15,152 nt of DNA from Pseudobdellovibrionaceae bacterium. GTDB taxonomy: Bacteria; Bdellovibrionota; Bdellovibrionia; Bdellovibrionales; Bdellovibrionaceae. The position numbers and the translations under genes are program-made. Below, piece after piece: positions 1 through 15,152 of this stretch. Numbering within the stretch: position 1 is the stretch's first letter; every line of letters starts with the position of its first letter. Below the pieces are notes generated by a model that was not told the DNA's origin, ran no database searches, and was given only the letters and a program-made list of their open reading frames with translations. Location: the NCBI GenBank assembly GCA_039810425.1, contig JBDHWW010000064.1, positions 1 through 15,152 of the forward strand, given 5' to 3'.

Positions 1-99
1 TCACGGCATCGGAAAATTCAAAAAATAAAATTTAACGGATCGGAGAGGATTGCTGCGGAGATTCCACGGATCCGGGGTCTAAATTCGGATTTGGGAAAT

Positions 100-127
100 A
101 AAAAAACCACCGTGATATTCGGTGGTT
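100..127 (-). terminator. Rho-independent terminator (minus strand)
   Basis: Perfect 8-bp inverted repeat AACCACCG (105-112) / CGGTGGTT (120-127) with a 7-nt loop. The A-run at 100-106 reads as a U-tract on the minus strand. Confidence 0.75.
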
Positions 128-616
128 AATGGTAGCCATCTTCCGTCAACCTGCAATCTTATCCAAGTACATGATTTTATTCAAATTTCATTTTCGGCGA
201 TTTATTCTAAAAACACCGATTTAAAGGCTCTTTATGAGCAAGGCCTTTCGATTCCCCAAATCGCCTGCCAACTCGGAATGTCTGTTTCTTCCACCAGAAG
301 TCATCTACTGAGGCTTGGAGTTACATTGCGAGCCAAGGGTTCGGTCAGCTTCGCTAAATCAAAAGTGAAAAGCTTTAAAAGTTCGTCTCCCCCACCCTAC
401 GGATACTGCTACCTTGACGGGCAGCTCCACAAGGACCCACGGGAATATCCAATTTTACAGATTATCGAAAAACAGACTCAAATGGGACGCACCCCATCAG
501 AAATCGCACACTTCCTAAATGCAAAGAAATTCAAAACCCGGCACGGGAAAGTCTGGAGGCAATCTCACACTTTTAACATCGTCCAAAGAATCAAGTCATC
601 CATACAAAAACCTTGA
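122..616 (+). CDS. HTH + Recombinase (PF07508-like) DNA-binding domain protein lacking the catalytic serine-resolvase domain; start uncertain
   Basis: HTH-like LKALYEQGLSIPQIACQLGMSVSSTRSHLLRLG, followed by PPYGY...GRTPSEIAHFLNAKKFKTRHGKVW...FNIVQR, typical of the large serine recombinase recombinase domain. There is no YxRVS catalytic motif. GTG122 lies inside the terminator stem without an RBS. Confidence 0.7.
   Translation: MVNGSHLPSTCNLIQVHDFIQISFSAIYSKNTDLKALYEQGLSIPQIACQLGMSVSSTRSHLLRLGVTLRAKGSVSFAKSKVKSFKSSSPPPYGYCYLDGQLHKDPREYPILQIIEKQTQMGRTPSEIAHFLNAKKFKTRHGKVWRQSHTFNIVQRIKSSIQKP
128..137 (-). other. Possible att-site core / tRNA 3'-end remnant (GGCTACCA)
   Basis: The minus strand reads GGCTACCA (137-130) 2 nt before the terminator, the arrangement expected at a tRNA 3' end. 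No tRNA body is present, and mobile-element-type genes start immediately to the right. The match is short. Confidence 0.4.
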
Positions 617-627
617 GGGAGGTCATC

Positions 628-840
628 ATGGGATTAGACAAACTGGCTATCTGGTCATTGAGTATCATCACAGCACTCGCAGGAGTTTTTAACATCGACA
701 CTATTCATCGGGAGATCATAAAAGCCCAGGCACGGATTCTCTTTGAGTCACGGACTGAAGCTTGGGGAAGTCCACGCTTCTTTGATACGCCAACAAAAAC
801 GCCAAAACGTCCAGAGAAAGCCACCAAGAAGGAAAACTGA
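628..840 (+). CDS. Small hypothetical protein with N-terminal hydrophobic segment
   Basis: GGAGG RBS at 618-622 before ATG628. Hydrophobic LAIWSLSIITALAGVF and a basic C-terminal tail; 70 aa. Confidence 0.65.
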   Translation: MGLDKLAIWSLSIITALAGVFNIDTIHREIIKAQARILFESRTEAWGSPRFFDTPTKTPKRPEKATKKEN

Positions 841-855
841 ATTCAAATTTAATTC

Positions 856-1062
856 CTCCGTTCTGTTTTTGGCGGAAGAAACTCAAGTCTCTTTTTTCAC
901 TTCTTCGCGTCAGCCCTCGCCAAGGCTTTGCCTTGTCATGGTCTGCGCCACTTCGCTCGGTCGAAGTGACGAGCCTTGGGCTTCTTCCTTTTAGTTCCTC
1001 CTCGGCCCCTCAATCTTCTACGAAGGGGTCCTCAATCACGAGGAACGAAACAAAAAACGGAG
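856..1062 (+). promoter_or_regulatory. Multi-branched structured leader (RNA or ssDNA) upstream of the Zn-ribbon gene
   Basis: Nested inverted repeats: 856-862/1056-1062, 872-880/901-908 (one bulge), 920-927/972-979, 949-955/962-968, 994-1000/1040-1046 and 1004-1010/1024-1030 (one G-T pair). Confidence 0.55.
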
Positions 1063-1069
1063 AAAATTT

Positions 1070-1519
1070 ATGCAATCTGAAATTCAGAAACGTCTTGAAC
1101 AACTTGCTTTTAAACATACCAATTCTTTTTGTTATTCCTGCTATCAAACCGTTATTGAGCCTCACTGCCCATCTTGTGGCACTGACGACTTCATGCGAGA
1201 ACTTTCCGGAGTTGGCGTAGCGTATGGCGCTAGCTGGGTAATCCGTGAAATACTCTCATCAGAACTGGAAGCAGTGGATATTAAGAAATGTTTCGAGCAA
1301 TCCATGCGTGACTGCTATCCTGAAGAAGTCACCATTGGATGGATGAGCTTAGATGCTGTTTCCGTGATGAAAGAGATGGACCCGATCTCTTGGAATATCG
1401 CTCAACAAGAGTGGGTTGGCCTTGAGGAACAGGAAGAAAACATTTTCAGCTTTGACAACAACAGCACATTTTATTGGGTTTCTGATATTGAAAATCTCTT
1501 ACGAGGTGAGGGGCTATAA
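1070..1519 (+). CDS. Acidic hypothetical protein with N-terminal Zn-ribbon (CxxC-x8-CxxC)
   Basis: GGAG RBS at 1059-1062. Contains CYSC...CPSC; about 26 D/E versus about 10 K/R by hand count. Confidence 0.8.
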   Translation: MQSEIQKRLEQLAFKHTNSFCYSCYQTVIEPHCPSCGTDDFMRELSGVGVAYGASWVIREILSSELEAVDIKKCFEQSMRDCYPEEVTIGWMSLDAVSVMKEMDPISWNIAQQEWVGLEEQEENIFSFDNNSTFYWVSDIENLLRGEGL

Positions 1520-1641
1520 CCCTTCCCTCTGTAAGGCATCGTGAGTAGCTTTAAAAGAGTCCCCGTATTTTTATCATAATTCGTAATCTCTTTTTGCACA
1601 CTTTCAATTTTCACATTCATATTACGATTCGAAATAGAAAA

Positions 1642-2625
1642 TCATAGAGGATTACCTTTAATTGCTGGGAAAAGAGATCTGGCCAAAAGAAAGATCCAAG
1701 TCACAACGACAAAAGGTAGTGTAAGGGCTGGCATACCTAAAGGCTCCAGCGCACCGGATGTCGCCGCAAATGCAACTGTCGTCATCACCGCCCCGAAAAA
1801 TGTGTAGCTCACTGATGCCACACTCGGCGCCAGGAAAACACTTCCCAACGCAATTGCTGTTAACGCGGGATTGAAGCTGAATGCTCCTGAGCGTATCGCT
1901 GGCTCCGCGGCCCCAAGCAACCACGCAACCAAGATTCCGACTGTCGATCCCATAAGAGCCGCCATACAGGAGCGCCAAGAACTAATAAGTAGTCCAAGAA
2001 CAAACAATATTCCTGTAACAATGTTTCCTTGAAAGAAGACTTGGCCTATCCCAGTGAATACGCCTTCAACAATGGTCGTCATGGTAACGACGCCCTCTAT
2101 CGTAGCCGCCTTTGGCAAGCCTGCTGTTGGCAAAATACTTGTCGAATGTAGTTGTCCAAAACGAGCACACGCCAATAAGAAAATATATGAAGAAAAAACA
2201 AAGGGAGCCGTCAGAGTAGGCATTTTTGAATTTTTTAAAAGATGTATCATTGCGGCCATCAAAATAGTTGAACTTGCTGCTGCAAAAATCAAATAAATCC
2301 AAGTAAGCCCATTTGGTTCTAGAAAGAAACTTAGAGCAATCGCAACCAATGCACCATTGAATCCAAAAAGCCCATCGCGCACTTGACGTGCGTCAACGTT
2401 CAAAACGTTCGCTGTAATTGTGCTAACCACGGTCCCTACTAAAGCGGCCACTCCAAATATAAATGAATTATAGAAAATTCCGAACAGAAAAATCAGGCCT
2501 GCTATGGGATTATTTTGCAGCATAACCTGTCCAAGGCCCCGAAGAACGGAGTCAATAAAACGCACAATAATACTCAAGAAAGAGCTACCCTGATTCAAGT
2601 TCGACCATGATACTAATATTTTCAT
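1642..2625 (-). CDS. Urea transporter (UT family channel)
   Basis: Duplicated UT signatures RGLGQVMLQNNP...GLFGFNGALV and TGIGQVFFQGN...GAFSFNPALT, plus LTAPFV/LTLPFV and highly hydrophobic composition. AAGGGA RBS lies before ATG2625. Confidence 0.92.
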   Translation of the reverse strand: MKILVSWSNLNQGSSFLSIIVRFIDSVLRGLGQVMLQNNPIAGLIFLFGIFYNSFIFGVAALVGTVVSTITANVLNVDARQVRDGLFGFNGALVAIALSFFLEPNGLTWIYLIFAAASSTILMAAMIHLLKNSKMPTLTAPFVFSSYIFLLACARFGQLHSTSILPTAGLPKAATIEGVVTMTTIVEGVFTGIGQVFFQGNIVTGILFVLGLLISSWRSCMAALMGSTVGILVAWLLGAAEPAIRSGAFSFNPALTAIALGSVFLAPSVASVSYTFFGAVMTTVAFAATSGALEPLGMPALTLPFVVVTWIFLLARSLFPAIKGNPL

Positions 2626-2742
2626 CAACTAAATCCCTTAAAGACCGATTGAAATTTACAACTCGCATTTTCTTTTAGCACAAACTCGAAAGCAGTAACA
2701 GTAGATCTCGTTGAGAAATGCCTTAGCAAGCCTATTTGATTT

Positions 2743-3261
2743 CTACTTTGAAGCCTGAATTTCAAAAACGACAAACTCAACTCCGTCTTCTTCAACTCGA
2801 CCTACTTCTTTCATTCCGATCTTCTTAGCGAGTGCAATAGAAGCAATATTAGTCGGCATTATTTGGGCAGTGATTCTTTCAAAACTAAGAGCATTAAATC
2901 CGTAATCGAGACAAGCCTTGGCAGCCTCAGAGGCAAATCCTTTACCCCAAAATGATCTAAGAAAACGATAACCTAAATCTATTTCATTAAGTTCTTCAAT
3001 CCACTTTAGACCGCACCAACCAATCCGTTTGCCCGTTGCTCTCTCTATGACAATAAATCGTCCGATTCTTCGATCAACAAATTGCGCTCGCAAGCTTTCA
3101 ATTATTTTGATGGCCTCGCGTACATCTCCGAGCGGTCCATCAGGCACATACCGAGTGACTTCGGGATCGGAATTCAACGTCACCATAAAATCAGCATCTT
3201 CAGTTCGGTGTGGTCTCAACTCTAATCGCGTAGTTAGTAGCTTGAAATTATCAATAGTCAT
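2743..3261 (-). CDS. GNAT N-acetyltransferase, RimJ/RimL type
   Basis: LTTRLELRP, IGWCGL, DLGYRFLRSFWGKGFASEAA and NIASIALAKKIGM motifs. Confidence 0.92.
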   Translation of the reverse strand: MTIDNFKLLTTRLELRPHRTEDADFMVTLNSDPEVTRYVPDGPLGDVREAIKIIESLRAQFVDRRIGRFIVIERATGKRIGWCGLKWIEELNEIDLGYRFLRSFWGKGFASEAAKACLDYGFNALSFERITAQIMPTNIASIALAKKIGMKEVGRVEEDGVEFVVFEIQASK

Positions 3262-3361
3262 CGGTTAAAGATATATTTCCAAATAGCGTCTGTCTAGTTG
3301 GCGTTTTATAGGCAACACAAAACACTCATTTATGCATTACTCTCCCTTTAAAGCTCCGACT

Positions 3362-3772
3362 TTATCTGTAAGATTTTTTGGGGGTCACATCATTGAGCGT
3401 CTTTTGCGAAAGAGAATCCATAAATGCCTCAAGGGCCTCAGATAAACTTTTTTTAAGAACGCAATTTTTAAGAAAGGTGCAATCGCACTTCTCGCCTGAG
3501 AAGCATTCGGCAATCTGAAAAGTTTCTTCTGTTTGCGCGACGATCTCTTTAAGCGTCTTGCTTCCAGTTTCATGGCGGATGGTAAGACCCCCAGTCTTTC
3601 CCCGAGCCGTCTCAATGAAGTTCAATTTCGCCAACTGATTTGAAACTTTAATCAGATTGTTTTTAGAAACTTTCAGAGTTTCGGAAAGCTCGTTTAATGT
3701 GACGGATCGTTTTTCCTGATTTAGATACATCAAAACTCGCAGTGAATAATCTGTATGTGCTGTCAAACGCAT
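3362..3772 (-). CDS. nsrR: Rrf2-family NO-sensing repressor, NsrR-like
   Basis: MRLTAHTDYSLRVLMYL start (Asp8), RGKTGG wing and C-terminal Cys cluster ECFSGEKCDCTFLKNC. AGGA RBS; adjacent to nnrS. Confidence 0.85.
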   Translation of the reverse strand: MRLTAHTDYSLRVLMYLNQEKRSVTLNELSETLKVSKNNLIKVSNQLAKLNFIETARGKTGGLTIRHETGSKTLKEIVAQTEETFQIAECFSGEKCDCTFLKNCVLKKSLSEALEAFMDSLSQKTLNDVTPKKSYR

Positions 3773-3784
3773 TGTTTTATTCCT

Positions 3785-4906
3785 TTAACACGAAGGTTTC
3801 GCCATGGGGCCAGGTCTAAAAATTCGAGGTAAAAAAGCCCAACACCAACAGACAACTGCGAGAATCCAAAAAGTCGCCGCCGTATGCAAATAGCTTTTTC
3901 TCCATAGCCCCTCAGAAAATCCGTAAAATACGCGCGAAAGGGCGCCTAATACTAAAAATATAAGCAAAAACCAAAGAGCTGACGATTGTTTCTCAAGATC
4001 AATCGGATAAGAACCGTGGGCAAGAGTCACCCGAGTCGCCACTGAAAAAGTAATCAAGCTAAAACAAGCGATAAAAATGATGTGAAACCATGTAATAAAC
4101 TGCATTGGCTGAACCCACGTCAAAAAGAAACACAAAGGAATCATCGCAGCCACAACCCGCACCGCATACTTGAGTGCTGATGGACGATCTGATGCCCTCT
4201 GCACTTGCCAAATCCTAAAAAGGTAAACCAACGTGACAATGGCAAGCCCCAGGTAGGCAAGCGAATGCCCTTGACCTGCTAGAAAAAGCAGACCCATCAC
4301 TAAAACCCCACCAACATGAAACACGATACGCAGGCCCCGTGAGGTAGAATTCTCAAACTCCGACGGAAGACCCGAGAGGAACGAAAAAAACCTCGTTCCT
4401 ATTCCCAACACTAACAAAAGAGTCGCTCCCAAATGGTAAAGATGAATCCCCATAAAAGAATTCCCACTGAATTGGTAGTACGCCCCTGCAAAAGCGAGAA
4501 TCATCGCCATACCTACATGAGAAAAGAAAACCGGCAAAGGTTTGGTCATCTTAAGAATACGCCTACCACCGTAGATCACCAAGAAAGCCACAAGCGCCAT
4601 TTGAAAAGAATAAAAAAATCGCGGATCACTGTACCAAGAAGAACACGTTTGCGCGAGGAGAAGTACACCTGATATCAGATACTCCAATATATTTGCACCT
4701 GTTGTTCCCGTCATCCTTGGAACCGCCGTCATAAGAAAGCCAACTATAAAACTCCAGAGAAACCCACCTGCAATCAGCTTCGAATGAATCAACATGGCTG
4801 GTGTGTTAAACCATTGAAGATCTTGAGTGAACCAAATACCGACGGCTAAAATAGCATTTAGAATCCCGAGCGGGAAATAAAGCTGGTAGGGGGCGATGCT
4901 TTTCAT
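3785..4906 (-). CDS. nnrS: NnrS family membrane protein
   Basis: PYQLYFPLG, GFLMTAVPRMTG and VATRVTLAHG motifs in a polytopic membrane protein. The start overlaps the upstream stop (ATGA). Confidence 0.85.
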   Translation of the reverse strand: MKSIAPYQLYFPLGILNAILAVGIWFTQDLQWFNTPAMLIHSKLIAGGFLWSFIVGFLMTAVPRMTGTTGANILEYLISGVLLLAQTCSSWYSDPRFFYSFQMALVAFLVIYGGRRILKMTKPLPVFFSHVGMAMILAFAGAYYQFSGNSFMGIHLYHLGATLLLVLGIGTRFFSFLSGLPSEFENSTSRGLRIVFHVGGVLVMGLLFLAGQGHSLAYLGLAIVTLVYLFRIWQVQRASDRPSALKYAVRVVAAMIPLCFFLTWVQPMQFITWFHIIFIACFSLITFSVATRVTLAHGSYPIDLEKQSSALWFLLIFLVLGALSRVFYGFSEGLWRKSYLHTAATFWILAVVCWCWAFLPRIFRPGPMAKPSC

Positions 4907-7071
4907 ATTTTAACTCCTTCAACCACATTAAGTCTAAAAGTGCTCAGAAGCATGAGAGAGAAACTGCCAAGCATGGAAAGCACTGCTCCTAATGGACTAA
5001 ACACTCCCAATGATGCCAGTACTAACGCCGCGACATTATAAACAGCAGCAGCACACCCCGTCTGAACGAGAACTCTACGAAACTTTTTTGAATACTTAAT
5101 TGCCGACAGGATCAAATCCAGATTGGGACTTCTGAGTTCAAAATCAACTGGAGCAAACCCTGAGATCCTGTGCCCCAGGCGAAAGCTTACGCGCGCCCTT
5201 GATAATGCCAGCGTATCGTTCAAGCCATCGCCGACAAAAACCGCGTTCGCACGTATGCTCTCTGCCTTTTCGCTGGGCGATAAATTTCCTAGAAAAGAAA
5301 TGCGTGGATCGATCTGGGTCAACGCTTTCCCTGCTCCTGCTTTAGGATCTCCAGAGAGAATCTCTATCCTGGAGTCAGGAACAAGTGTTAACAGTCTTTC
5401 TAGGAATCGACGGGCCATAGTATCGTAGGCACTTTTACTAACAATTTCTCCGACGATTTCGCCGTTAAGTGAAACTAAAGTACCAACAAGATCCTCGTAT
5501 TCAATGACATCAACTCCCTGACTTTCGAGAAAACTTTCTTTACCCACGCATATGAGTGCCCCGTCATCTGCCTTGGCGACGCCCCCTAATCCCGCAAACT
5601 CACGTAAATCATTAATCGCATTTGATTCGCCGGAAATATTAAGTCCACGCAGGATCGCATGACTTGCTTTTTCAGAGATTGATTTTAGGTAAGGAAGAAC
5701 ATCGTTTTCTTTTCCGTTCTTGAAGGGCATAAAAATCGAATCAACGGCCTCTAGTGTTCCAGTCTTATCAAAGTAGAAATTCGAAATCTGAGAAAGATCC
5801 AACAGAGCGTCACTTCTGTGAAGCATGATCCCCGACTTCAACAACGCCAAATACGCCATTTGTGATGCCAGAGGCAGAATACTCGCAAATAGACATGGAC
5901 AAAAAATCAAAATACCGACGAAAAATGACTCAATTACATCCTCAGTTTTATTCCCTCTAAATGCGTGAACGGAGGCAATAGTTAAAGCTCCCAAAAATGC
6001 GACCATGACCAAAGCGCTTTCAGCCTTTGCCAATATTCTAGAATAGCGGGACTCCCGTCCCCCACCGATCACGGCGCTTTCCGCCCAAGCATCAATCTTG
6101 CGTGCACCTTGTGGAGCCAAAACCGACATTTCAATCCGGCTTTTGGCAATTGCTCCTGCAAAGATATGGTCGCCCTTTTTAAGGGTTATAACATCTGACT
6201 CTCCACTCATTAAGTGGTTATTGATTGGTGCAGTATCGCTTATCAAAGCCCCATCGAAAGCGACTGTATCTTCTGGAGAAAACCGCACAATGTCGTTTTT
6301 TTTAACCTGAGAAGCTTCCGCCTGGGCCCATGTGCCTTTCCTAAAAATTTCCACTAATGATGAATCAGATCGAATCTGATAAAGAATATTGGAAGTCGTT
6401 GATGTCACAATCGAATTTTCAATTTTCTTTGTTAAGAGTAAAATAGCCACAATCATGGAGCCAGAGTCAGCGTACGTCCCGCTAGAATTGGATATTAAAG
6501 AAAAAATAGAAACGCCGACCGCAGAGCAACCACCAACAAAAATGAAAAAGTCCAAGGTTAAAAGACGGCTGAACCACAATGCCCGAACTCCCGCTTTTGC
6601 GAAAGGATAAATACCAATCAAAATAGCGGGCAAACCAAAAAATGAAGAGGCCAGAGCCAAAGCATGAAGCTCGCCCTGCGAAAGTTCGCCTCCGATATAG
6701 CCCGCAAAAGCCAACATCGAGGACCACATGGCTAAAAACCAAACGAGGCTCACCTGAACCCAGGGGATCTTACGGTTGGCTTCATTTTGAAGCCTTTCGC
6801 GGTAGCTTGCTATCCACCCATCAGACTGCTTTTTAACACCAAATCCAATTCGGATAATTTTTTCCTGGATAGACTCATCAAGGCCCGGTAATTCATAGGA
6901 AGGCTTTACGATCAAAAGTTTGCTTGCGTAATTGAGGTCTGCTGATTCGATACCTTCAATTTGGGTCACGGACTCACGAATATTCTTGGCACAAGTTGAA
7001 CACCACATACCGGATATAAAATAGATAAGATCTTTCTGCGACCCGACACTCACTTCATTCACCGTTTTCAT
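4903..7071 (-). CDS. ccoI: P1B-type Cu-transporting ATPase, CcoI/FixI-like
   Basis: N-terminal HMA motif GMWCSTC, SGES, CPC, DKTGTL, GDGLND and YN. Divergently adjacent to ccoN. Confidence 0.85.
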   Translation of the reverse strand: MKTVNEVSVGSQKDLIYFISGMWCSTCAKNIRESVTQIEGIESADLNYASKLLIVKPSYELPGLDESIQEKIIRIGFGVKKQSDGWIASYRERLQNEANRKIPWVQVSLVWFLAMWSSMLAFAGYIGGELSQGELHALALASSFFGLPAILIGIYPFAKAGVRALWFSRLLTLDFFIFVGGCSAVGVSIFSLISNSSGTYADSGSMIVAILLLTKKIENSIVTSTTSNILYQIRSDSSLVEIFRKGTWAQAEASQVKKNDIVRFSPEDTVAFDGALISDTAPINNHLMSGESDVITLKKGDHIFAGAIAKSRIEMSVLAPQGARKIDAWAESAVIGGGRESRYSRILAKAESALVMVAFLGALTIASVHAFRGNKTEDVIESFFVGILIFCPCLFASILPLASQMAYLALLKSGIMLHRSDALLDLSQISNFYFDKTGTLEAVDSIFMPFKNGKENDVLPYLKSISEKASHAILRGLNISGESNAINDLREFAGLGGVAKADDGALICVGKESFLESQGVDVIEYEDLVGTLVSLNGEIVGEIVSKSAYDTMARRFLERLLTLVPDSRIEILSGDPKAGAGKALTQIDPRISFLGNLSPSEKAESIRANAVFVGDGLNDTLALSRARVSFRLGHRISGFAPVDFELRSPNLDLILSAIKYSKKFRRVLVQTGCAAAVYNVAALVLASLGVFSPLGAVLSMLGSFSLMLLSTFRLNVVEGVKI

Positions 7072-7075
7072 GTAA

Positions 7076-7104
7076 TTGACAGACCTGACTTAATGTTGCA
7101 TATT
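7076..7104 (+). promoter_or_regulatory. Putative sigma70 promoter for ccoN
   Basis: Perfect TTGACA at 7076-7081, a 17-bp spacer, then CATATT at 7099-7104 (4/6 match to -10). A perfect TATAAT at 7121-7126 offers an alternative -10. Confidence 0.55.
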
Positions 7105-7115
7105 ACATGCAATTA
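7093..7115. promoter_or_regulatory. NsrR-type operator
   Basis: Palindrome TTGCAT-N5-ATGCAA (7096-7112) has the geometry of the NsrR consensus GATGCAT-N5-ATGCATC. It lies between the divergent operons, one of which encodes nsrR. Confidence 0.7.
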
Positions 7116-7169
7116 TTCAATATAATTTGCAGAACCGTGACTTTCATCAGTCGTGCTCGGAGTGCCATA

Positions 7170-8708
7170 ATGGATGCAAAAGTGGTCTTTCTGGTTTTAA
7201 CGTTTTCAATTTCTGTTTTAGGGATGCTGGCATTTGTCGTTGCCCTAATCCAAAAACAAGTGCTCGTTCCACCTTCAGCAGCGAAATCGATTTTTTTAGC
7301 CAATGAGTTTGGTCACTCTGAACTTGATTCCACCAGCCAACTGAGCGATCAGTGGAGGACCTTAGACCAATCTGCAAGAAAGCCGATCCTGTTTTTTATT
7401 GTAACTGCCACCTTGTGGCTAGTCCTAGGGTCCCTCTTTGGGCTCTTGGTCTCTATTAAATTTCACGCGCCGGAGTTCTTAGGAACAGAAGCGCTTTTAA
7501 CCTTTGGAAAGCTAAGGCCTCTTCACTTAAATATTATCACTTACGGATGGCTTTCTCCTGCAGCCCTTGCGGTCTCCATGTGGCTGGTTCCTCGTTTAAC
7601 AAAGGTTCCTTTGCAAAGTATTAAGACTCTTTACGCCGCAGGAATAATCTGGAATGTCGGCGTACTTCTTGGATGTATCGGGATCTTGTTCGGATATACG
7701 GATGGACTTGAATGGCTGGAGTTCTGGTGGCCAACTAAAATCTTGCTGGCAATAGCGGGCGCTATGATCGCTATCCCACTTTTTAAAACGATCTATCTAA
7801 GCAAAGAAAAGCATCTCTATGTGACCATGTGGTACACGATCTGCGCACTTATTTGGTTTCCGGCTCTATTCATTATTGCAAACGCACACTTTCTACACTC
7901 TGGCGTTGAGCAGGCCATCGCAAACTGGTGGTTCGCCCACAATGTTCTTGGTCTTTGGGTAACTCCGTTAGGGCTTGGGATTATTTATTACCTACTTCCA
8001 AAAATAACGGGTCATCCTATTTTTTCTTATCAACTTTCTTTATTTGGCTTTTGGGGTTTGGCTCTTTTCTACTCTCAGGTGGGCATGCACCACTTGCTCG
8101 GCGGCCCTATCCCAACTTGGATTGGAAACTTGTCGGTCGTAATGAGTGTCGGCATGGCAATTCCTGTTGTCACTGTTGCCATCAACCATCACGTTTCAAC
8201 TTATAAATACTTTCATGTGCTAAAAGATTCTGTTGTATTAAGATTTATTGTCTTTGGGGCGATGTCTTACACCGTGAGTTCCCTGCAAGGCTCACTTCAC
8301 TCGCTAAGAACTTTCAACTACATCACCCATTTTACTCATTGGACAGTCTCACATGCCCACCTGGGGCTTTATGGCTTCAACACGATGGTTCTTTTTGGCG
8401 GGATTTATTTCGCGCTGCCAAGACTTGTTGGCAGAAACTTTAAGCACCCACAGCTACTAAATCTCCATTTCTGGGTAGCCGCGATTGGCATCATCATCTA
8501 TGCCATCGCACTTGGCATTGGCGGATGGCTTCAAGGTGTAGAACTCAGAAACGTGCAAGGAAGTTTTGAACAGTCAGTAAGACTCACAATGCCCTACCTC
8601 ATCATCCGCAGCGTGGGAGGGACTCTTATGTTATTTTCGCATCTACTTATGCTTTACAATGTCTTTAGCATCCTGCGCCCCATGAAAGTGGAGGCCATCC
8701 ATGAATAA
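7170..8708 (+). CDS. ccoN: cbb3-type (C-family) heme-copper oxidase subunit I with an extra N-terminal CcoS-like helix
   Basis: All six His ligands are present: RPLHLN, WWFAHNVLG, GMHHLL and VSHAHLG. The helix VII Tyr is at the cbb3 position (YSQVGMHH). GGAG RBS at 7159-7162 favours ATG7170 over 7107. Confidence 0.93.
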   Translation: MDAKVVFLVLTFSISVLGMLAFVVALIQKQVLVPPSAAKSIFLANEFGHSELDSTSQLSDQWRTLDQSARKPILFFIVTATLWLVLGSLFGLLVSIKFHAPEFLGTEALLTFGKLRPLHLNIITYGWLSPAALAVSMWLVPRLTKVPLQSIKTLYAAGIIWNVGVLLGCIGILFGYTDGLEWLEFWWPTKILLAIAGAMIAIPLFKTIYLSKEKHLYVTMWYTICALIWFPALFIIANAHFLHSGVEQAIANWWFAHNVLGLWVTPLGLGIIYYLLPKITGHPIFSYQLSLFGFWGLALFYSQVGMHHLLGGPIPTWIGNLSVVMSVGMAIPVVTVAINHHVSTYKYFHVLKDSVVLRFIVFGAMSYTVSSLQGSLHSLRTFNYITHFTHWTVSHAHLGLYGFNTMVLFGGIYFALPRLVGRNFKHPQLLNLHFWVAAIGIIIYAIALGIGGWLQGVELRNVQGSFEQSVRLTMPYLIIRSVGGTLMLFSHLLMLYNVFSILRPMKVEAIHE

Positions 8709-9294
8709 AGCCTATATTTTTGTTTTTGGTGGGATTAGCACGATCACACTTTCGATCTTTATTTTTATACTCGTCCCACGCATACAAGTGTCTGCCATCA
8801 ACAAAGGCTCCATGAGTGCTCAGCGCCCTTACACAGAGAACGAACTCAAAGGACGCCACGTCTATATTGAAAATGGCTGTGTTTACTGCCACTCCCAACA
8901 AGTACGTGATCCCGTTGCTGGGGCCGATAAATACTTTGGCTGGGGCCGCCCAAGCCTTCCGTCGGATTACATCTATGATAAACCTCATTTGCTTGGCACA
9001 ATGAGAACAGGTCCTGACCTCTCAAATATTGGATCAAGACAGCCCAGCCGCGACTGGCACCATTTGCACCTCTACAACCCAAGAAGTCTCGTGAGTTGGA
9101 GTATTATGCCGGGGTTTTCATTTCTTTACAAAGAGGTCACCTCCGTGGATTCACCACAAACGGGAGCCATTCGCGTTCCGGGCAAAAACGAACTTTGGTT
9201 AGTCCCCAGCGAAGAGGCCGAAGATTTAGTTGCATATTTAATGAGTTTGAAACGTGATCGCGACCCTGTGAAAGCATCGGAGGCAGTAAAATGA
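8701..9294 (+). CDS. ccoO: cbb3-type oxidase subunit II (monoheme)
   Basis: N-terminal TM helix, GRHVYIENGCVYCHSQQVR, GTMRTGPDL and SIMP. Overlaps the ccoN stop. Confidence 0.93.
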   Translation: MNKAYIFVFGGISTITLSIFIFILVPRIQVSAINKGSMSAQRPYTENELKGRHVYIENGCVYCHSQQVRDPVAGADKYFGWGRPSLPSDYIYDKPHLLGTMRTGPDLSNIGSRQPSRDWHHLHLYNPRSLVSWSIMPGFSFLYKEVTSVDSPQTGAIRVPGKNELWLVPSEEAEDLVAYLMSLKRDRDPVKASEAVK

Positions 9295-9911
9295 GTTTTA
9301 AAGAAGACCGTCTCGAAAACGAAAAAAATGATCCGATGGAGTCCTCTTCGCTCAAGTTCATCAATATTCCCATTACGCTGATTGCGCTCTTCATTGGGTT
9401 TGGGGCGACATATCTCGCTCTCAGAACCGATAGCACGTCCATGAACCAAGGTGACAGCCGAACCAAGTCGCCAGGGGCCGCAAACAACGCAACACCAGCC
9501 ACTCAAGAAAACTCTCTTGCGGCCCTCATGGAAAAAGGAAAACAGGTTTACACCACAACCTGCCAAGCTTGCCATCAGGCGACTGGAGTCGGAATTCCAG
9601 GGGCTTTTCCACCGCTGGCTGGATCGGATTGGATCAAAGGCCCCGGAAAAAGAGTTGCAGCCATTATACTTCACGGCATCCAAGGTGAAATCACGGTCAA
9701 CGGACAAAAATACCAAGGTGCTATGCCGACATTCCAAGATCAGCTAAAACCCGAAGACATCGCAGCCGTTGCAACTTATGTTCGGAACTCTTTCGGAAAC
9801 AATGCTGATCTAGTCACAGTCGAAATGGTCAACCAAGTTAAAGAAGACACGAAATCCAAGACAACACCTTGGGATGGCGAAAAAGAGCTGAATGCGCAAA
9901 AGTGGGAATAA
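9291..9911 (+). CDS. Membrane-anchored monoheme class I cytochrome c
   Basis: One TM helix, a low-complexity linker, a single CQACH, GAFPPLAGS, distal Met in GAMP and YVRNSFGN. ATGA overlap with ccoO. Confidence 0.9.
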   Translation: MSFKEDRLENEKNDPMESSSLKFINIPITLIALFIGFGATYLALRTDSTSMNQGDSRTKSPGAANNATPATQENSLAALMEKGKQVYTTTCQACHQATGVGIPGAFPPLAGSDWIKGPGKRVAAIILHGIQGEITVNGQKYQGAMPTFQDQLKPEDIAAVATYVRNSFGNNADLVTVEMVNQVKEDTKSKTTPWDGEKELNAQKWE

Positions 9912-9913
9912 GC

Positions 9914-10375
9914 ATGAGTCAAGAATACATACCAAAAGAAAACAAAATCAATGTGAATGGCGTAGAATTTTCTCATCAGGACTTTTTCAATGTTGTTGAT
10001 GATTTCTATACACGTATTCAAAACGACCCGATCCTTCAAGTGCCTTTCAAATCTGTTGCCGATTGGCCAGAGCACATTCAAAAGCTCACACATTTTTGGT
10101 GGGTTAAATTCGGCGGCACTCCTTATTTGTTCAACTACTATAATCCCGTTGAAAAGCATTTTTTCGCGGGATTTAACGACGAGCTTTTAGAAAGATGGCT
10201 TAGGATCTTTCGCGAGACACTTAACACTCACTTGACGCAAGATCAGGCCGCCCTTTGGACATTGGTTTCCGAAAGAATGGGGCATGCTTTGTCGCTGAAG
10301 AACGACCTGTACAGGGTTGACTATGAACAACGAAACTCTGGAGCAAATGCTGGAAAACCTAATGGCACAAAATAG
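9914..10375 (+). CDS. Group III truncated hemoglobin (2/2 globin)
   Basis: VDDFYTRIQNDP (TyrB10), DWPEHIQKLTHFW (HisE7), PVEKH (HisF8) and ERWLRIF (TrpG8). ATG9914 lies 2 nt after the upstream stop. Confidence 0.88.
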   Translation: MSQEYIPKENKINVNGVEFSHQDFFNVVDDFYTRIQNDPILQVPFKSVADWPEHIQKLTHFWWVKFGGTPYLFNYYNPVEKHFFAGFNDELLERWLRIFRETLNTHLTQDQAALWTLVSERMGHALSLKNDLYRVDYEQRNSGANAGKPNGTK

Positions 10376-10411
10376 TGATTCTATCTTCTGCTAGCCGTCT
10401 TTCTAGAAGCC

Positions 10412-11053
10412 TTAACTTTCCTTGTTTCTAATACAGAATCGGCACACAGCTCCCCCTCGGGCAATACAGCTCTCTAACCGCACACTTTTTCCTCCGGTCG
10501 CCTCTTCAATAAATTTAATATCAAATGTGCACAGAGAAGGGTGCTCTTTCGCAACCGAGTGATAAACACAGTTTGTCGCCTCTAGAACAGCTCCCTTTCT
10601 CATGTCCGATTGCTTTAAGGTGGTTCGGTATCCCAGTTCATTCAAAGTTTCGGTAACCATTTCCAATAGTTCTGCGGTCGATTTTGCTTTAGCAAATTTA
10701 TCCTCCATTGACCGAGCAACTGATTTTGCAAGCTTGCCCATCATTTCTCGGATGGCGTCCTCTCCAAGATCCTTTGCTAAAAAGGCAAGAAGTGTATTTG
10801 AAAGCCAAGAATACTTTCTTGGAAAAATCTCGTGCCCCTCGTTTGTTAAGAGGTAATGACGACTCGGGCGTCCCACTGATCCCCTCACATCTTTAAAGAC
10901 TATATAGCCAGCAGATTCAAGTTTGAGGACGTGTTCTTTGGTCGCAGTTTTTGTAATCCCTAAATGAGTCGACAACCCGTCTAATGACACTCCATCCGAA
11001 TGATCTAACAAATACTCTAATATTTTCTGCTGATTCTCATGCAGGCCACGCAT
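10412..11053 (-). CDS. ArsR/SufR-like winged-HTH regulator with Cys-containing C-terminal sensor domain
   Basis: HTH LGITKTATKEHVLKLE, GSVGRPSRHYLLT, FPRKYSWL and NCVYH...LCTFD...SCIARGGAVCRF. AAGGAG RBS. Confidence 0.85.
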   Translation of the reverse strand: MRGLHENQQKILEYLLDHSDGVSLDGLSTHLGITKTATKEHVLKLESAGYIVFKDVRGSVGRPSRHYLLTNEGHEIFPRKYSWLSNTLLAFLAKDLGEDAIREMMGKLAKSVARSMEDKFAKAKSTAELLEMVTETLNELGYRTTLKQSDMRKGAVLEATNCVYHSVAKEHPSLCTFDIKFIEEATGGKSVRLESCIARGGAVCRFCIRNKES

Positions 11054-11160
11054 TTTTTACTCCTTAAACCCTTTTAAACAATATAAACAGTCTTTTCTAT
11101 TTTAATTAAAATGGTCATTATAGATCAAGAAGAAAACACCTTTTCATAATAGGAGACCTC

Positions 11161-11676
11161 ATGGAAAACGTTTTAAAATCAAACACGTCACTAATCTCAA
11201 CAACAAATAAAAGCTTTGTCGGCGGCATCATTACAGGACAAATTGCCGGTCTTATAATGGCCGTCGTGGTAATGATTGTCTTCACCCTTCTCGGTAAAGG
11301 TCCGCTTTATCCGGTCCAAGTCATTGGGTCCGCAGTCTTTGGAGAGTCTGCACTTCAAGGTCTCAACATCAACGCCATATTTGCGGGCTTAGTTCTTCAC
11401 CAAGCAGGACCTTCTTTACTTTGGGGATTCGTTTTTGGTCTGATCGCTAAAAATACGAATATCGACAGCACAAAAAAATCCCTGAGCATTGGTCTTACAA
11501 TCGGAGTGATTTCAATGGTCGGTCCTTATTTTTTGATTCCAGCAATTATGAACATGCTTCACGGAGTTGATATATGGAATCGTGAAGTACCGATGTTTTG
11601 GGATTGGGCTGCGCATATTGTCTTCGGTGCTTCATTCGCCCTTTATCCTGTCGTTATGAAAAAACTCGACAAATAA
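11161..11676 (+). CDS. Hypothetical 4-TM membrane protein with intramembrane His residues
   Basis: AGGAG RBS at 11151-11155 and four hydrophobic segments containing LVLHQAG and WAAHIVFG. Confidence 0.8.
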
Positions 11677-11692
11677 TTTTCAAAAAAAAAGA

Positions 11693-12307
11693 ATGCTTAT
11701 GAAAGTTATGCAAAATACAACCATATCTATCTCTAACGAAACAACAAGTCTAGAGTCTCTTAAGTTATTAACAACGGATCTTCTTCATCACATTGGGGAA
11801 GATCCGTCCCGCTCCGGACTAATTGACACTCCCAAACGTTTTAGCAAAGCCATAAAATTTTTGACTTCAGGTTCCGAAGTCAATATTGACCAACTAATTG
11901 GTGAAGCACTTTTCGAAGAACCTTCTGGCGAATTGGTTTTTGTTCGTGATATTGAATTCTATTCCTTATGCGAACATCATATGCTTCCATTTTTTGGCAA
12001 GGCACATGTCGCATACATTCCCAATGGAAAAGTAATCGGTCTTTCAAAAATCCCGCGAGTTGTTGATGCGTTTGCCCGCCGTTTACAAGTTCAGGAGCGG
12101 CTCACACATGAAATCGCAAAAGAAATAGAGCGTATTCTAAAACCCAAGGGCGTTGCTGTAATAACTGAAGCCTCACATCTTTGCATGATGATGAGAGGAG
12201 TTGAAAAGCAGAACAGCACCACGCTAACACAAACGACTTTAGGTGAATTTGCGACCAGTTCGCAACTACGAAGCGAATTAATGACCTTAATCCGTGCGAG
12301 ATATTAA
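11693..12307 (+). CDS. folE: GTP cyclohydrolase I (FolE, type IA)
   Basis: [45 protein letters not shown] and HLCMMMRGV. The start could instead be 11699 or 11708. Confidence 0.96.
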
Positions 12308-12355
12308 GCATTCTAAATAAACACTGCTAAAAGCAGATAACCACAAGGAGAACAC

Positions 12356-12991
12356 ATGAAAAAATTTTTAATTTCAACAATGCTCACCGCGACATTCCTG
12401 TTCGGATCAACAGGGTTTGCTCACAAAGCAGAACCAGTAAAAAATCGCACTCCAAGCATGAGTGCACTCTACTCTGCGATGCAAAATCTATGGGCCCAAC
12501 ACATGGAATGGACTTACGCGGCTGTGGTTGCATTGGTGACCGACCCCAAGGCTGTTGATGCCACCGCTGCTCGTCTTTTGAAAAATCAAGAGGACATTGG
12601 AAATGCTATTAAGCCTTATTACGGCGATGCTGCCGGTGACGCACTAACAAAACTTCTGAAAGAACATATCGCTGGCGCTGTGGATGTTGTTAAATATGCG
12701 AAGGCCAATGATAAATCCGCTTTAGATAAAGCCATCGCGGCCGCTTACGCAAACGCACAAGAGATCGCTGACTTCCTAGCTAAAGCCAATCCAAATTGGA
12801 AGCAAGAAGACACGCGCACAATGTTGAAGGGACATATCGATACAACCCTAGTTTATGCGACATCTCTTATTAAAGGTAATTTCGCAGAAGCGATTGTTGA
12901 ATACGACAAAGCAAGAGATCATATGCTTCATATGGCTGATACTTTAAGCGACGGATTAGTTGCACAGTTCCCTAAAAAATTCAAAAAATAA
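12356..12991 (+). CDS. Secreted all-helical protein with repeated His/Met motifs, function unknown
   Basis: AAGGAG RBS and a Sec signal peptide [22 protein letters not shown]. Motifs [20 protein letters not shown] and RDHMLHMAD. Confidence 0.85.
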
Positions 12992-13001
12992 ATACCACAG
13001 C

Positions 13002-13040
13002 GTTCTGACGAGTTTTTGAACCTACAAAGCTCGTCAGAAC
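13002..13040. terminator. Strong hairpin between convergent genes, probable bidirectional terminator
   Basis: Perfect 11-bp inverted repeat GTTCTGACGAG (13002-13012) / CTCGTCAGAAC (13030-13040), extendable inward. There is no classical U-tract. Confidence 0.65.
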
Positions 13041-13059
13041 ATCGCAAATATTCGCCTCT

Positions 13060-14436
13060 TCAAGAAGGCGCTTTAGCTGTGCTATTAATCTTTGAAGCTA
13101 GGTCAAAAATGACATCCACGCTTCCTGAGACCGCTCCTACGTTCAAGACAATTACTTGAGAATTTGCTTTCAAGGACTCAGTTTCGTGCAAAATAGAAGT
13201 TGTGGCACTTCGTAGCAGTTGTATAAACCGATCCATTTGCTCGAGGTAGTGCTGGAACGCTTGCTTAACTTCGCTGACTCGCGCCGACTCCACAGCCCCA
13301 ATTTGTTTGATGACTTCAAGACCAGTAATGAATTTCGAAACATCACGCATGCCTGTTTCGATTTCAGCCAAGTAAGTTGAAAGCTCAGATACTTCTTTTT
13401 TCAAATTCATCGAGTAATCTTTAAAAAGATGCGAGAAGTCTTTCTGATTTTCTGCCATCTCAGCAAAAGCAGTATCTACCTTTTGCATTTTTAGGATCGA
13501 CTCTTTTACAAAGAAATCCACCATCAGCATTTGCGAGTTCAACGCTGAAGCTCGAAAAGAGCACTGCTGAATAACCTTGGCGAGATTTTGTACGAAACCA
13601 GTAAGCCCGCTTAGGTTTTTTTCAATCTCTCCAGAAAGAGATGAAAACTCCTTAGAGACAACCCCTAAACTTGCAGCCACATTTCCAAATTTTGCGGCCG
13701 CTATCGTCATATTAACCGAAATAAACTTCAGATTGAGGAACTCTTTATCCAAATTATCAATGGTTGTTACCAAAACATCATTCGATTTTTGAAAACCACT
13801 GACTTTTTCAAATATATCATTGAGGCGGGACAACGTCGAATTTGTCGTTTCAGCGATCTGTCTAAACTGACCAGAGTCCTGGCCTAATTTTTCTTGAGAC
13901 TGAGACTTGTTTACCTGAAGTGCTCTCGAATTAAGTTCCGCCAGGGTGGCCTTGACCATGAATTCTTCATAATCCTTAAATCCTTGTTGCTTGATCTTTT
14001 CTAAAAGCAGATTTTCGGAAGCATCTAGATCATCGTTCCCCTGCTCAAACACTCGGAGTTCTTCATAAATCTTTTGAACTTCTTGAAATATTACTGAAGA
14101 CGGCTTAAACCGAATTGATAGATACCCATCTTCAATTGGAAACGCGAATGCAAAGACCCAGTAGTAGCTACCGTTTCCCGCTAGATTTTTAACATAGGCA
14201 CCAATTGCTTTATCAGATTTTAGCGTATCCCAAAAAATCTTGAATACAGAACGAGGCATATCCGGATGTCGAATAATACTATGGGGTGCCCCTATCATTT
14301 GCTCCTTGGGATAAACACTCACCCTAGCGAATACGTCATTACCAAATCGGATCACGCCGCGTTTATTTGTTGTCGAAAAAAAGAACTCATGAAATCCAAA
14401 CGGGCTTTCATTCTGATTCGGAATGGGTTTTTTCAT
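13060..14436 (-). CDS. Soluble Aer-type PAS domain protein with degenerate chemoreceptor-like coiled coil
   Basis: FFSTTNKRGVI, GAPHSIIRHPDMPRSVF and YVKNLAGNGSYYWV match the Aer FAD-PAS domain. There is no TM segment, and the C-terminus is long and helical. Confidence 0.85.
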   Translation of the reverse strand: MKKPIPNQNESPFGFHEFFFSTTNKRGVIRFGNDVFARVSVYPKEQMIGAPHSIIRHPDMPRSVFKIFWDTLKSDKAIGAYVKNLAGNGSYYWVFAFAFPIEDGYLSIRFKPSSVIFQEVQKIYEELRVFEQGNDDLDASENLLLEKIKQQGFKDYEEFMVKATLAELNSRALQVNKSQSQEKLGQDSGQFRQIAETTNSTLSRLNDIFEKVSGFQKSNDVLVTTIDNLDKEFLNLKFISVNMTIAAAKFGNVAASLGVVSKEFSSLSGEIEKNLSGLTGFVQNLAKVIQQCSFRASALNSQMLMVDFFVKESILKMQKVDTAFAEMAENQKDFSHLFKDYSMNLKKEVSELSTYLAEIETGMRDVSKFITGLEVIKQIGAVESARVSEVKQAFQHYLEQMDRFIQLLRSATTSILHETESLKANSQVIVLNVGAVSGSVDVIFDLASKINSTAKAPS

Positions 14437-14469
14437 ATCTCATTAACTCTTTCGGATAAAAACCTTTAT

Positions 14470-15006
14470 CTAAAAACCATCGGTAGTCCCTAGCTTACGA
14501 TGAGTTTCTTGGTCATCGTCAAAGGGGATCATTTCTTCACCTTTTACAGGAGGTTTCGTTACTTTTTTCAGTTTGATAACATTTCTTTCCATAACATGGC
14601 CATTGCTCTGAACTTGTACTTCAACACGTCCATCACCAGATACTAACCCGTTAAGGGACGCCACATTTTTCAAAAGTACAGAAGATTGCGCAGAAAGTTC
14701 TTCTGCAGTCGCTGCCGCTTCCTCAGATGCCGCCGCATTTCCTTGGGTGACACCGTCGAGCTGATTCATTGCTCGACTAATTTGCAAAATTCCACTGGAT
14801 TGTTCTTCGCTGGCAGTTGCGATTTCACCGTTAAGATCTGATACTTTTTTAACTGAGTTTACGATTTCAGCCAACACCTCGCCGCTGCGATTTGCTTGCT
14901 CCGCGCTATTGCCGATTCGCGTAACACTCAAGTCGATCAATGTTGCGATATTTTTTGCAGACTCAGCACTTCTCTGCGCAAGATTTCTTACGGCTTCTGC
15001 AACAAC
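14470..15006 (-). pseudogene. 3' fragment of a methyl-accepting chemotaxis protein gene, interrupted by an insertion
   Basis: VVAEAVRNLAQRSAESAK, EIATASEEQSSGI and NAAASEEAAATAEELSAQ. The expected upstream AARAGExGxGFA is replaced by unrelated sequence beyond 15006. Confidence 0.88.
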
Positions 15007-15152
15007 GAGAAATTTTGGAAAGTTGTGGACGGCTGACAAAAGAAACATAGCGGCATAACCTTGTTGGTGCATAAGCCAACCCGTCAAAATGACGAGAATA
15101 AAGGAGAGCCGCTATGAGCACAGTTTTACCAATGAGATCTGAACCACGCAAA
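15007..15152 (+). mobile_element. Left end of a probable insertion sequence (IS256-like terminus), truncated by the window
   Basis: Abrupt junction in the most conserved MCP motif. The terminus GAGAAATTTTGGAAAGTTGTGGAC resembles IS256-family ends, and an RBS plus ATG follow about 100 nt inside. Confidence 0.65.
15114..15152 (+). CDS. Start of an ORF (MSTVLPMRSEPRK...), presumed transposase, truncated by the window
   Basis: AAGGAG at 15101-15106, ATG15114, and a frame open to the window end. The product is inferred from position only. Confidence 0.5.
   Translation, partial: MSTVLPMRSEPRK

Follow-up and report, generated by a model that had tools for sequence, protein, structure and literature searches.

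A start-less recombinase frame at a tRNA-Val end in Bdellovibrionota is probably the C-terminal piece of a large serine integrase gene split by its own attP site

How can a protein-coding frame persist when it has no usable start? This question is raised by the left end of the window, by which we mean the whole stretch of DNA analyzed, 15,152 nucleotides that make up an entire contig (C64) of a Pseudobdellovibrionaceae bacterium. Near that end, an open reading frame (ORF) is closed on its 5′ side by a TGA at 113-115, is open from 116 to 613, and stops at 614-616. Its in-frame ATG, GTG, and TTG codons lie at 122, 278, 326, 365, and 482, with no others. GTG122 falls within the stem of a minus-strand terminator-like hairpin with a T-run (105-127, terminator scan), and the 16 bases 5′ of it (106-121) are hairpin with no purine-rich ribosome-binding site (RBS). 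ATG278 sits between helices 2 and 3 of the helix-turn-helix (HTH) domain predicted by the fold model. An earlier sequence-only reading had described just this, namely, a frame closed upstream, a sole pre-HTH start buried in a terminator stem without an RBS, and a next start inside the HTH, and the coordinates and the fold model bear it out. It had gone on to propose that the ORF becomes the in-frame C-terminal extension of an integrase. We agree, with a probability of about 85%, that the ORF is the C-terminal piece of a large serine recombinase (LSR) gene that contains its own attP, a gene that integration would split and whose frame the circle would rejoin.

The encoded product looks like the DNA-binding part of such an enzyme. 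A Pfam search returned the HTH-type family Sigma70_r4_2 (E 2e-5, just below its cut-off) and PF07508 Recombinase (E 6e-4, 20.4 bits versus a cut-off of 21.1, half of the model covered), and the Resolvase catalytic domain (PF00239) was absent from 122-613. With both matches just under their cut-offs, this accords with the earlier description of an HTH and a recombinase DNA-binding domain with no catalytic domain. In the fold model (pLDDT 80.6), residues 1 to 25 are unstructured, residues 26 to 61 form a three-helix HTH, and residues 82 to 160 form a further domain whose best match among 48,161 chains was the serine-integrase recombinase domain 9dxd (borderline Z 8.0, rmsd 2.9, 79 residues aligned). 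A Foldseek search of the PDB gave no match at E 0.001, and Rfam gave four matches on window 1-1700, all at chance level. The features of the window are collected in Table 1.

Table 1. Features of the window, with putative assignments worded as such
Position	Strand	Feature	Basis
1..76	.	End of a multicopy repeat (probably an IS) that breaks the contig; outside the element	100% identical at four other contig ends
96..127	-	Host intrinsic terminator of tRNA-Val(TAC); host arm of the att site, left at the element's end	Terminator scan; G083/G084/G080 comparison
130..135	+	att core TGGTAG, antisense of the final six bases of tRNA-Val(TAC)	Start of identity to the G052 copy
131..616	+	Probable start-less C-terminal piece of a split LSR gene, 161 codons	Pfam, fold model, in-frame tail of natural 650-788 aa frames
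131..616 (parts)	+	Disordered linker; HTH, ~206-313; spacer; recombinase-like winged helix, ~374-610	Pfam, fold model
134-135	+	Putative crossover dinucleotide AG	Dyad center between core bases 5 and 6 in 23/25 pairs
136..161	+	Putative element arm of attP (P′ half-site), overlapping ORF codons 2-9	Mirrors cognate LSR-side arm; dN/dS 0.75
164..176	+	Conserved IHF-like DNA motif underlying Q-x-H-D residues	26 non-redundant copies
628..840	+	Small conserved ORF with hydrophobic N terminus, W-G-S-P motif, and own RBS (615-622)	Follows 40/67 homologous ORFs
1070..1519	+	Zinc-ribbon-like ORF inside the element	Weak DZR match below cut-off; common to the G052 copy up to base 1385
2535..15013	.	Probable element cargo	Blocks 94-96% identical in G052

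The frame passes through AAT GGT AGC at 128-136, which had been taken for the reverse complement of a tRNA-like 3′ end, GCTACCA, beside a terminator. In genomes of the same genus, the terminator hairpin follows an intact tRNA-Val(TAC) in G083, a 3′ fragment of tRNA-Val in G084, and adjoins a 62% identical ORF in G080; at the same-genus locus L065, the hairpin lies immediately 3′ of the intact tRNA-Val(TAC). The flank is different in G052, a genome of another genus with a 98% identical copy of the ORF, and the identity begins exactly at base 130; run X2 has the same flank as the G052 copy, and we counted the two as one observation. Because the hairpin stands behind an intact tRNA-Val(TAC) and the G052 copy starts at 130, the arrangement of ORF and att site is more than chance. 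The tRNA ends in CCCTACCA, not GCTACCA, and thus the shared core is TGGTAG and C136 is already element DNA. The tRNA-like end next to a terminator was therefore correctly recognized, but the proposed GCTACCA was one base too long. No tRNA ending in GCTACCA was found among the ARAGORN-called tRNAs of the genome, and none of its 187 GCTACCA sites had T-arm context. A frameshift from the frame-1 ORF at 1-129 was ruled out, since bases 1-76 are the end of a repeat and the flanks of homologues are unrelated.

We examined whether other copies of the ORF begin in the same way. Relatives were found in 145 of 384 genomes of the order and in 87 of 301 genomes sampled across the phylum; none was found in the viral contigs or plasmids searched. 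The loci examined held 73 distinct copies, 2 of them cut by contig ends and 71 scored. In 60 of the 71, TGG stands exactly 13 codons before a conserved His and is read xxT-GGx, and the frame of these copies begins at the antisense CCA of a tRNA or tmRNA in one fixed register. Among the other 11 are three copies from a clade with a shifted register, some that are broken or truncated, and one that was misaligned. Among 24 strong matches from other orders (drawn from 40 hand-picked regions, one match duplicating a record already used), 18 were exact, 5 had an in-frame TGG 3-9 nt upstream, and 1 had none; weak matches from these orders kept the exact register in only 6 of 18. In metagenomes, where 80 of 140 loci were obtained and 66 copies were scorable, 49 were exact, 6 were shifted by one base, 1 was shifted the opposite way, and 10 had no TGG within 3 nt.

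The fixed distance to the H-D residues is not proof alone, because the H-D motif overlaps an IHF-like DNA motif and the spacing may partly reflect DNA geometry. That motif averages 1.96 mismatches in 9 positions at its offset versus 5.9 in the background (26 non-redundant copies). Together with an Ile codon that is always ATT, it marks DNA-level conservation at 164-181, just beyond the attP arm.

Homologues, like the window ORF, lack a conserved start and RBS of their own. Among 61 unfused copies, 35 have no ATG, GTG, or TTG at all within the first 30 codons, and the 7 SD-like starts detected all lie within the host flank, none of them being element encoded. The next ORF downstream, of the 628-840 type, carries an SD-like motif in 35 of 40 copies.

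If the ORF is the tail of a split gene, the front of that gene should read into the tRNA from the far end of the element. Using the LSR part of a natural fusion as the query, we found matching LSRs in 158 of the order's 384 genomes. Sixty LSR frames were examined, and 39 of them enter the 3′ end of a tRNA or tmRNA gene on the antisense strand (tRNAs for Val, Met/Ile(CAT), Arg, Gln, Pro, and Ala, plus tmRNA) and stop 6 to 46 codons later; the rest comprised 8 fused frames (6 genes), 12 without a T-arm match, and 1 spurious match. The 39 read the core as xxT-GG in 36 cases and shifted by one base in 3. When ORFs were paired with LSRs (24 of the 25 pairs on one contig), the frames were concordant in 23 of 25, and the two ends had 6 to 11 nt of core in common in 24 of 25. 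In these pairs, the ends joined in silico, as had been proposed, fuse in frame. Of the two discordant pairs, one has an ORF with a broken frame and the other has a mutated core. The three one-base-shifted LSRs pair with three equally shifted ORFs; these form a single clade and so represent one compensated event rather than three, and the permutation P value of 0.0004 overstates the case.

The joined arms also have the symmetry expected of an attP site. Around core bases 5-6 (center at +5), the arms of the joined element are dyad symmetric in 23 of 25 pairs. The mirror score was 14.75/22 for cognate arms versus 9.2 for noncognate and 6.7 for host arms, and the cognate arm ranked first in 15 of 24. 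The tRNA T-loop matched the attP arm motif best at a 5-bp shift (5.8/14, versus 2.3-3.9 at other shifts); a 5-bp motif offset between attP and attB in LSRs is described in 10.1101/2025.01.03.631226.

At the orthologous site in G080, of the same genus, an element of ~33 kb is bounded by an LSR that reads into tRNA-Val(TAC). Between its att sites, TraG/TraC ATPase, VirB8, VirB9 (CagX), TrbI, and coupling-protein matches were above cut-off, and TrbL was weak. With its type IV secretion and coupling-protein genes, the element is, by its gene content, an integrative conjugative element (ICE) of Bdellovibrionota. The LSR at the orthologous site (L099) has PF00239, PF07508, and PF13408 in order, all above cut-off, and the catalytic Resolvase domain is present both in the partner LSR and in the natural fusion. 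The sequence-only reading had expected a tRNA and a recombinase gene at the far end; relatives have both, G080 included, but the far end of the window copy is absent from the assembly, and the tRNA does not end in GCTACCA.

Frames that already carry both parts occur in nature. Six natural frames of 650 to 788 aa consist of a full LSR plus the tail module, five joined at the exact junction and one with its joint four codons upstream of it; an LSR is likewise joined to a tail in P0151 (726 aa) and in several partial proteins. One natural fusion was folded (pLDDT 84.8): its junction falls in a disordered stretch (537-589) that links two confidently modeled parts, and by domain search and fold model the front half still has catalytic, recombinase, zinc-ribbon, and coiled-coil regions. 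These frames support the proposed C-terminal extension of an integrase. Five natural junctions were scored, and their symmetry was low (6-9/22). Two fusions (G174:C46 and G109:C16) are followed on their contig by another LSR and a tRNA and are thus tandem-insertion hybrids, not circles; all five scored junctions look like such hybrids by their arms.

An attP junction, which was to be recovered by sequence mining, did not turn up: no joint at 130-135 was present in the contigs of the likely source run, and the contigs of four runs showed none, although assembled contigs lose rare variants and their silence does not argue that the joint is missing. No cognate attP was found among 66 metagenome copies or in viral contigs or plasmids. 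In L172 (G556:C159), from another order, an LSR and a tail that are both more distantly related make up a natural fusion of 738 aa. At a tandem junction in L113 (G151:C78), an LSR end resembling the shifted register meets an unshifted ORF and gives an out-of-frame hybrid. At a tmRNA, L011:9965-13818 is a 3.9-kb element with intact symmetric arms (17/22) and no LSR, a candidate nonautonomous element mobilized in trans.

Is the start-less tail translated? Across 39 non-redundant copies, no in-frame stop occurs in the first 16 codons, against 18.9 expected, and the other two frames of the same stretch contain stops in 15 and 36 copies. At codons 10 to 15, pN was 0.135 versus a pS of 0.446. Over 21 nonoverlapping pairs, dN/dS was 0.10-0.23 across the linker, HTH, and recombinase-like parts; it was 0.75 in the att arm (136-161). 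The missing stops, the pN below pS, and the low dN/dS imply that the stretch is translated, and the tail is, to judge from these rates, under purifying selection.

The strongest competing explanation is that the ORF is a free-standing small DNA-binding protein, a regulator or directionality factor, made from a noncanonical start such as ATT179, with the LSR frame a leftover of its origin. Codon +16 gives this idea its weight: it is ATT in 47 of 60 copies and, among the 39 non-redundant ones, in 29 of 29 Ile cases versus 44% elsewhere, never ATC or ATA. This fixation counts against the split-gene explanation. Codon +12 is GTG in 13 of 60 copies, and copies without a nearby full LSR keep open frames. 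However, codon +16 is ACT, ACC, GTT, or CTT in 12 of 60 copies whose frames are open, and no SD precedes any internal start. Moreover, the codons upstream of the ATT are the ones under the protein-level selection described above and free of stops, and a frameshift compensated from one side of the att core to the other requires translation through it. We consider this explanation unlikely. Less probable still, and already largely refuted, is that a second, unrelated recombinase is decaying at the att site, with the ORF as its remnant and the fusions as tandem-insertion accidents, for although every scored natural fusion looks hybrid and some copies are broken (the 2 discordant pairs of 25 and a decayed relic of the ORF at G000:C76:9354-9467), the low dN/dS, a frame open from the core in 60 of 60 copies, and a register that is the same across different tRNA and tmRNA targets and across orders all oppose it.

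The window copy itself may be an orphan. We found no LSR compatible with it in this assembly, and the near-identical G052 copy is also without a full LSR. The sole family LSR of the assembly lies on C61, where it runs into half a tRNA-Arg and has another crossover dinucleotide; we rejected it as the partner because its core differs from that of the window at this dinucleotide, and the C99 copy fits it better. C61 carries the only ICE backbone in the assembly (LSR into the tRNA-Arg 3′ half, G000:C61:13113-14900, L001), and C99 carries a second start-less copy behind a tRNA-Arg-type terminator (G000:C99:2085-2585, L003). These two are probably the ends of one element, though their arm symmetry is weak. 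The host tRNA-Val(TAC) is on C1, followed by other DNA that ends at a repeat. A matching left arm was sought before 672 TGGTAG sites of the genome; the best scored 13/22, and none was followed by tRNA sequence. Metagenome contigs, searched by pattern for the left arm as predicted, gave 0 matches. The arm of an LSR from the same genus (L199) fits the window arm at 17/22, with the same core and register. The assembly has 149 contigs, none below 2.5 kb, and C64 also ends near another repeat; given this size floor and this end, the opposite end of the element may have gone unassembled or been lost. Many copies are orphans with no full LSR, and of 10 copies with a tRNA or tmRNA nearby and no full LSR between, most keep an open frame. 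In the same genome, a different, repeat-interrupted LSR family (right end of G000:C37 and left end of C40) runs into tRNA-Leu genes with the CCA read as a Trp codon.

The repeat ending at window 1-76 is ~2 kb long and is present at the ends of five contigs; on C7, C11, and C12 it lies downstream of a tRNA gene. It is found on a 2055-nt contig of depth 97 versus 15.5 for the rest. On the other side of the ORF, three blocks (2535-10454, 10587-10885, and 13023-15013) are 94-96% identical to DNA downstream of the same ORF in G052. The 94-98% identity of window 130-15013 to this locus of another genus (L143) suggests a recent transfer. The window has a GC content of 43.5% versus 49.0% genome-wide. 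Cargo names (GNAT, Rrf2, NnrS, heavy-metal ATPase, cbb3-type oxidase, and chemoreceptor) come from reading translations rather than from a family search; the cargo shared with L143 includes probable nitric oxide and low-oxygen respiration genes. The ORF at 628-840 had no match in Pfam, NCBIfam, or Atlas, and transcription from the LSR promoter might reach it only after excision.

As far as comparative sequence can take them, the site, the register, the symmetry, the natural fused frames, and the selection are established, and the ORF as the C-terminal piece of a split LSR gene would work as follows. The element would recombine where a tRNA or tmRNA gene ends in CCA, with the crossover two bases inside the acceptor stem. 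Integration would leave the front piece at one end as a complete LSR of ~570-600 aa, ending after 6 to 46 junk residues from antisense tRNA, and, at the opposite end, a start-less tail preceded by the host terminator. Excision would restore a single frame of 730 to 790 aa (LSR, disordered linker, HTH, and second recombinase-like domain), and a second element inserting at the same CCA would likewise restore one frame. We infer that the circle forms and that the long protein is made from it; the circle may also cotranscribe the small downstream ORF.

What the long form would do is a separate matter. Provided that the fusion is real, a circle-specific long form whose extra DNA-binding module favors integration or blocks reexcision in a new host comes close to even odds. 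It is appreciably less probable that the long form mainly represses the promoter of its own or transfer genes, and a little less probable again that the fusion is a mere expression switch for a module acting elsewhere. Tail fusion might in the first case act as a directionality switch, as the sequence-only reading had suggested. The broadest version is tentative and, on balance, doubtful: across the phylum, serine integrases would have their direction set by their own product, the long form of the circle integrating at the tRNA T-arm/CCA and the short integrated form excising, with no separate directionality factor and with tandem insertion shuffling the tails. Because both forms, the att sites, and the crossover can be read from the sequence, the question is directly testable in vitro.

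Serine integrases are workhorses of genome engineering, and what makes them integrate rather than excise, or the reverse, is under active study. In the present case, recombination itself would edit the enzyme, and mobile elements of predatory bacteria are expected to encode one enzyme in two forms. Genome annotation and LSR mining would pick up only the truncated version that the integrated element encodes. No description of a serine integrase split by its attP or of this element was found in the full texts searched, a collection with few subscription journals. The passages searched in PMC10083194, PMC12884075, PMC13626063, PMC8371274, and PMC2951348 contain no description of a split-LSR arrangement, and none of 391 matching phage records covered 80% of the natural fusion.

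Several known systems share parts of this arrangement. The LSRs of SPbeta, Bxb1, and phiC31 have a symmetric attP with a central dinucleotide, and in engineered integrase-RDF fusions a C-terminal appendage can set directionality (10.1101/2025.01.03.631226 and PMC5737554). The elements described here are like them in front-half domain order, symmetric attP, central dinucleotide, and 5-bp attP/attB shift; unlike the engineered fusions, the appendage is natural, would be state dependent, and is made of DNA-binding folds. In the Islander paper (PMC4383910), targeting of tRNA and tmRNA ends is stated not to be known for serine recombinases, and the present survey documents LSRs at many such ends. 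A precedent for serine recombination at a tRNA end is Ralstonia phage phiRSM (PMC3816273). Its serine recombinase acts at a tRNA gene's 3′ end, where the core begins with TGG, and its attP lies between ORF14 and ORF15. This recombinase, however, is of the small resolvase type, and the attP is outside the recombinase gene.

The Mx8 IntP protein is reportedly a phage tyrosine integrase that targets a tRNA gene and is less active when truncated. In this Myxococcus phage, the integrase extends across attP and integration alters its C terminus (PMC4383910). In Bdellovibrionota, by contrast, conjugative elements carry an LSR, which loses a folded DNA-binding module of two domains and ~160 aa. A close architectural parallel is with the SSV-type suicidal tyrosine integrases, which carry attP in the integrase gene and are split by integration (PMC7253208 and PMC8371274). 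These sources describe them at the 3′ ends of many tRNA genes, with alternative att frames with compensating indels and with tandem-integration hybrids, and as restricted to archaea, with both halves inactive. The elements of Bdellovibrionota are like them in having attP inside the integrase frame, a gene split on integration, tRNA 3′ ends as targets, a compensated alternative att frame, and tandem hybrids. They differ in being bacterial and in encoding a serine recombinase, since only serine-recombinase families matched and no tyrosine domain was found, and their front half, by its domain matches, retains all canonical LSR domains. By these comparisons, the arrangement is a serine-integrase counterpart of the att-split tyrosine integrases of the SSV and Mx8 types, with a front half that keeps the catalytic domains and a tail that adds two DNA-binding domains, and it extends att-split integrases from tyrosine to serine chemistry.
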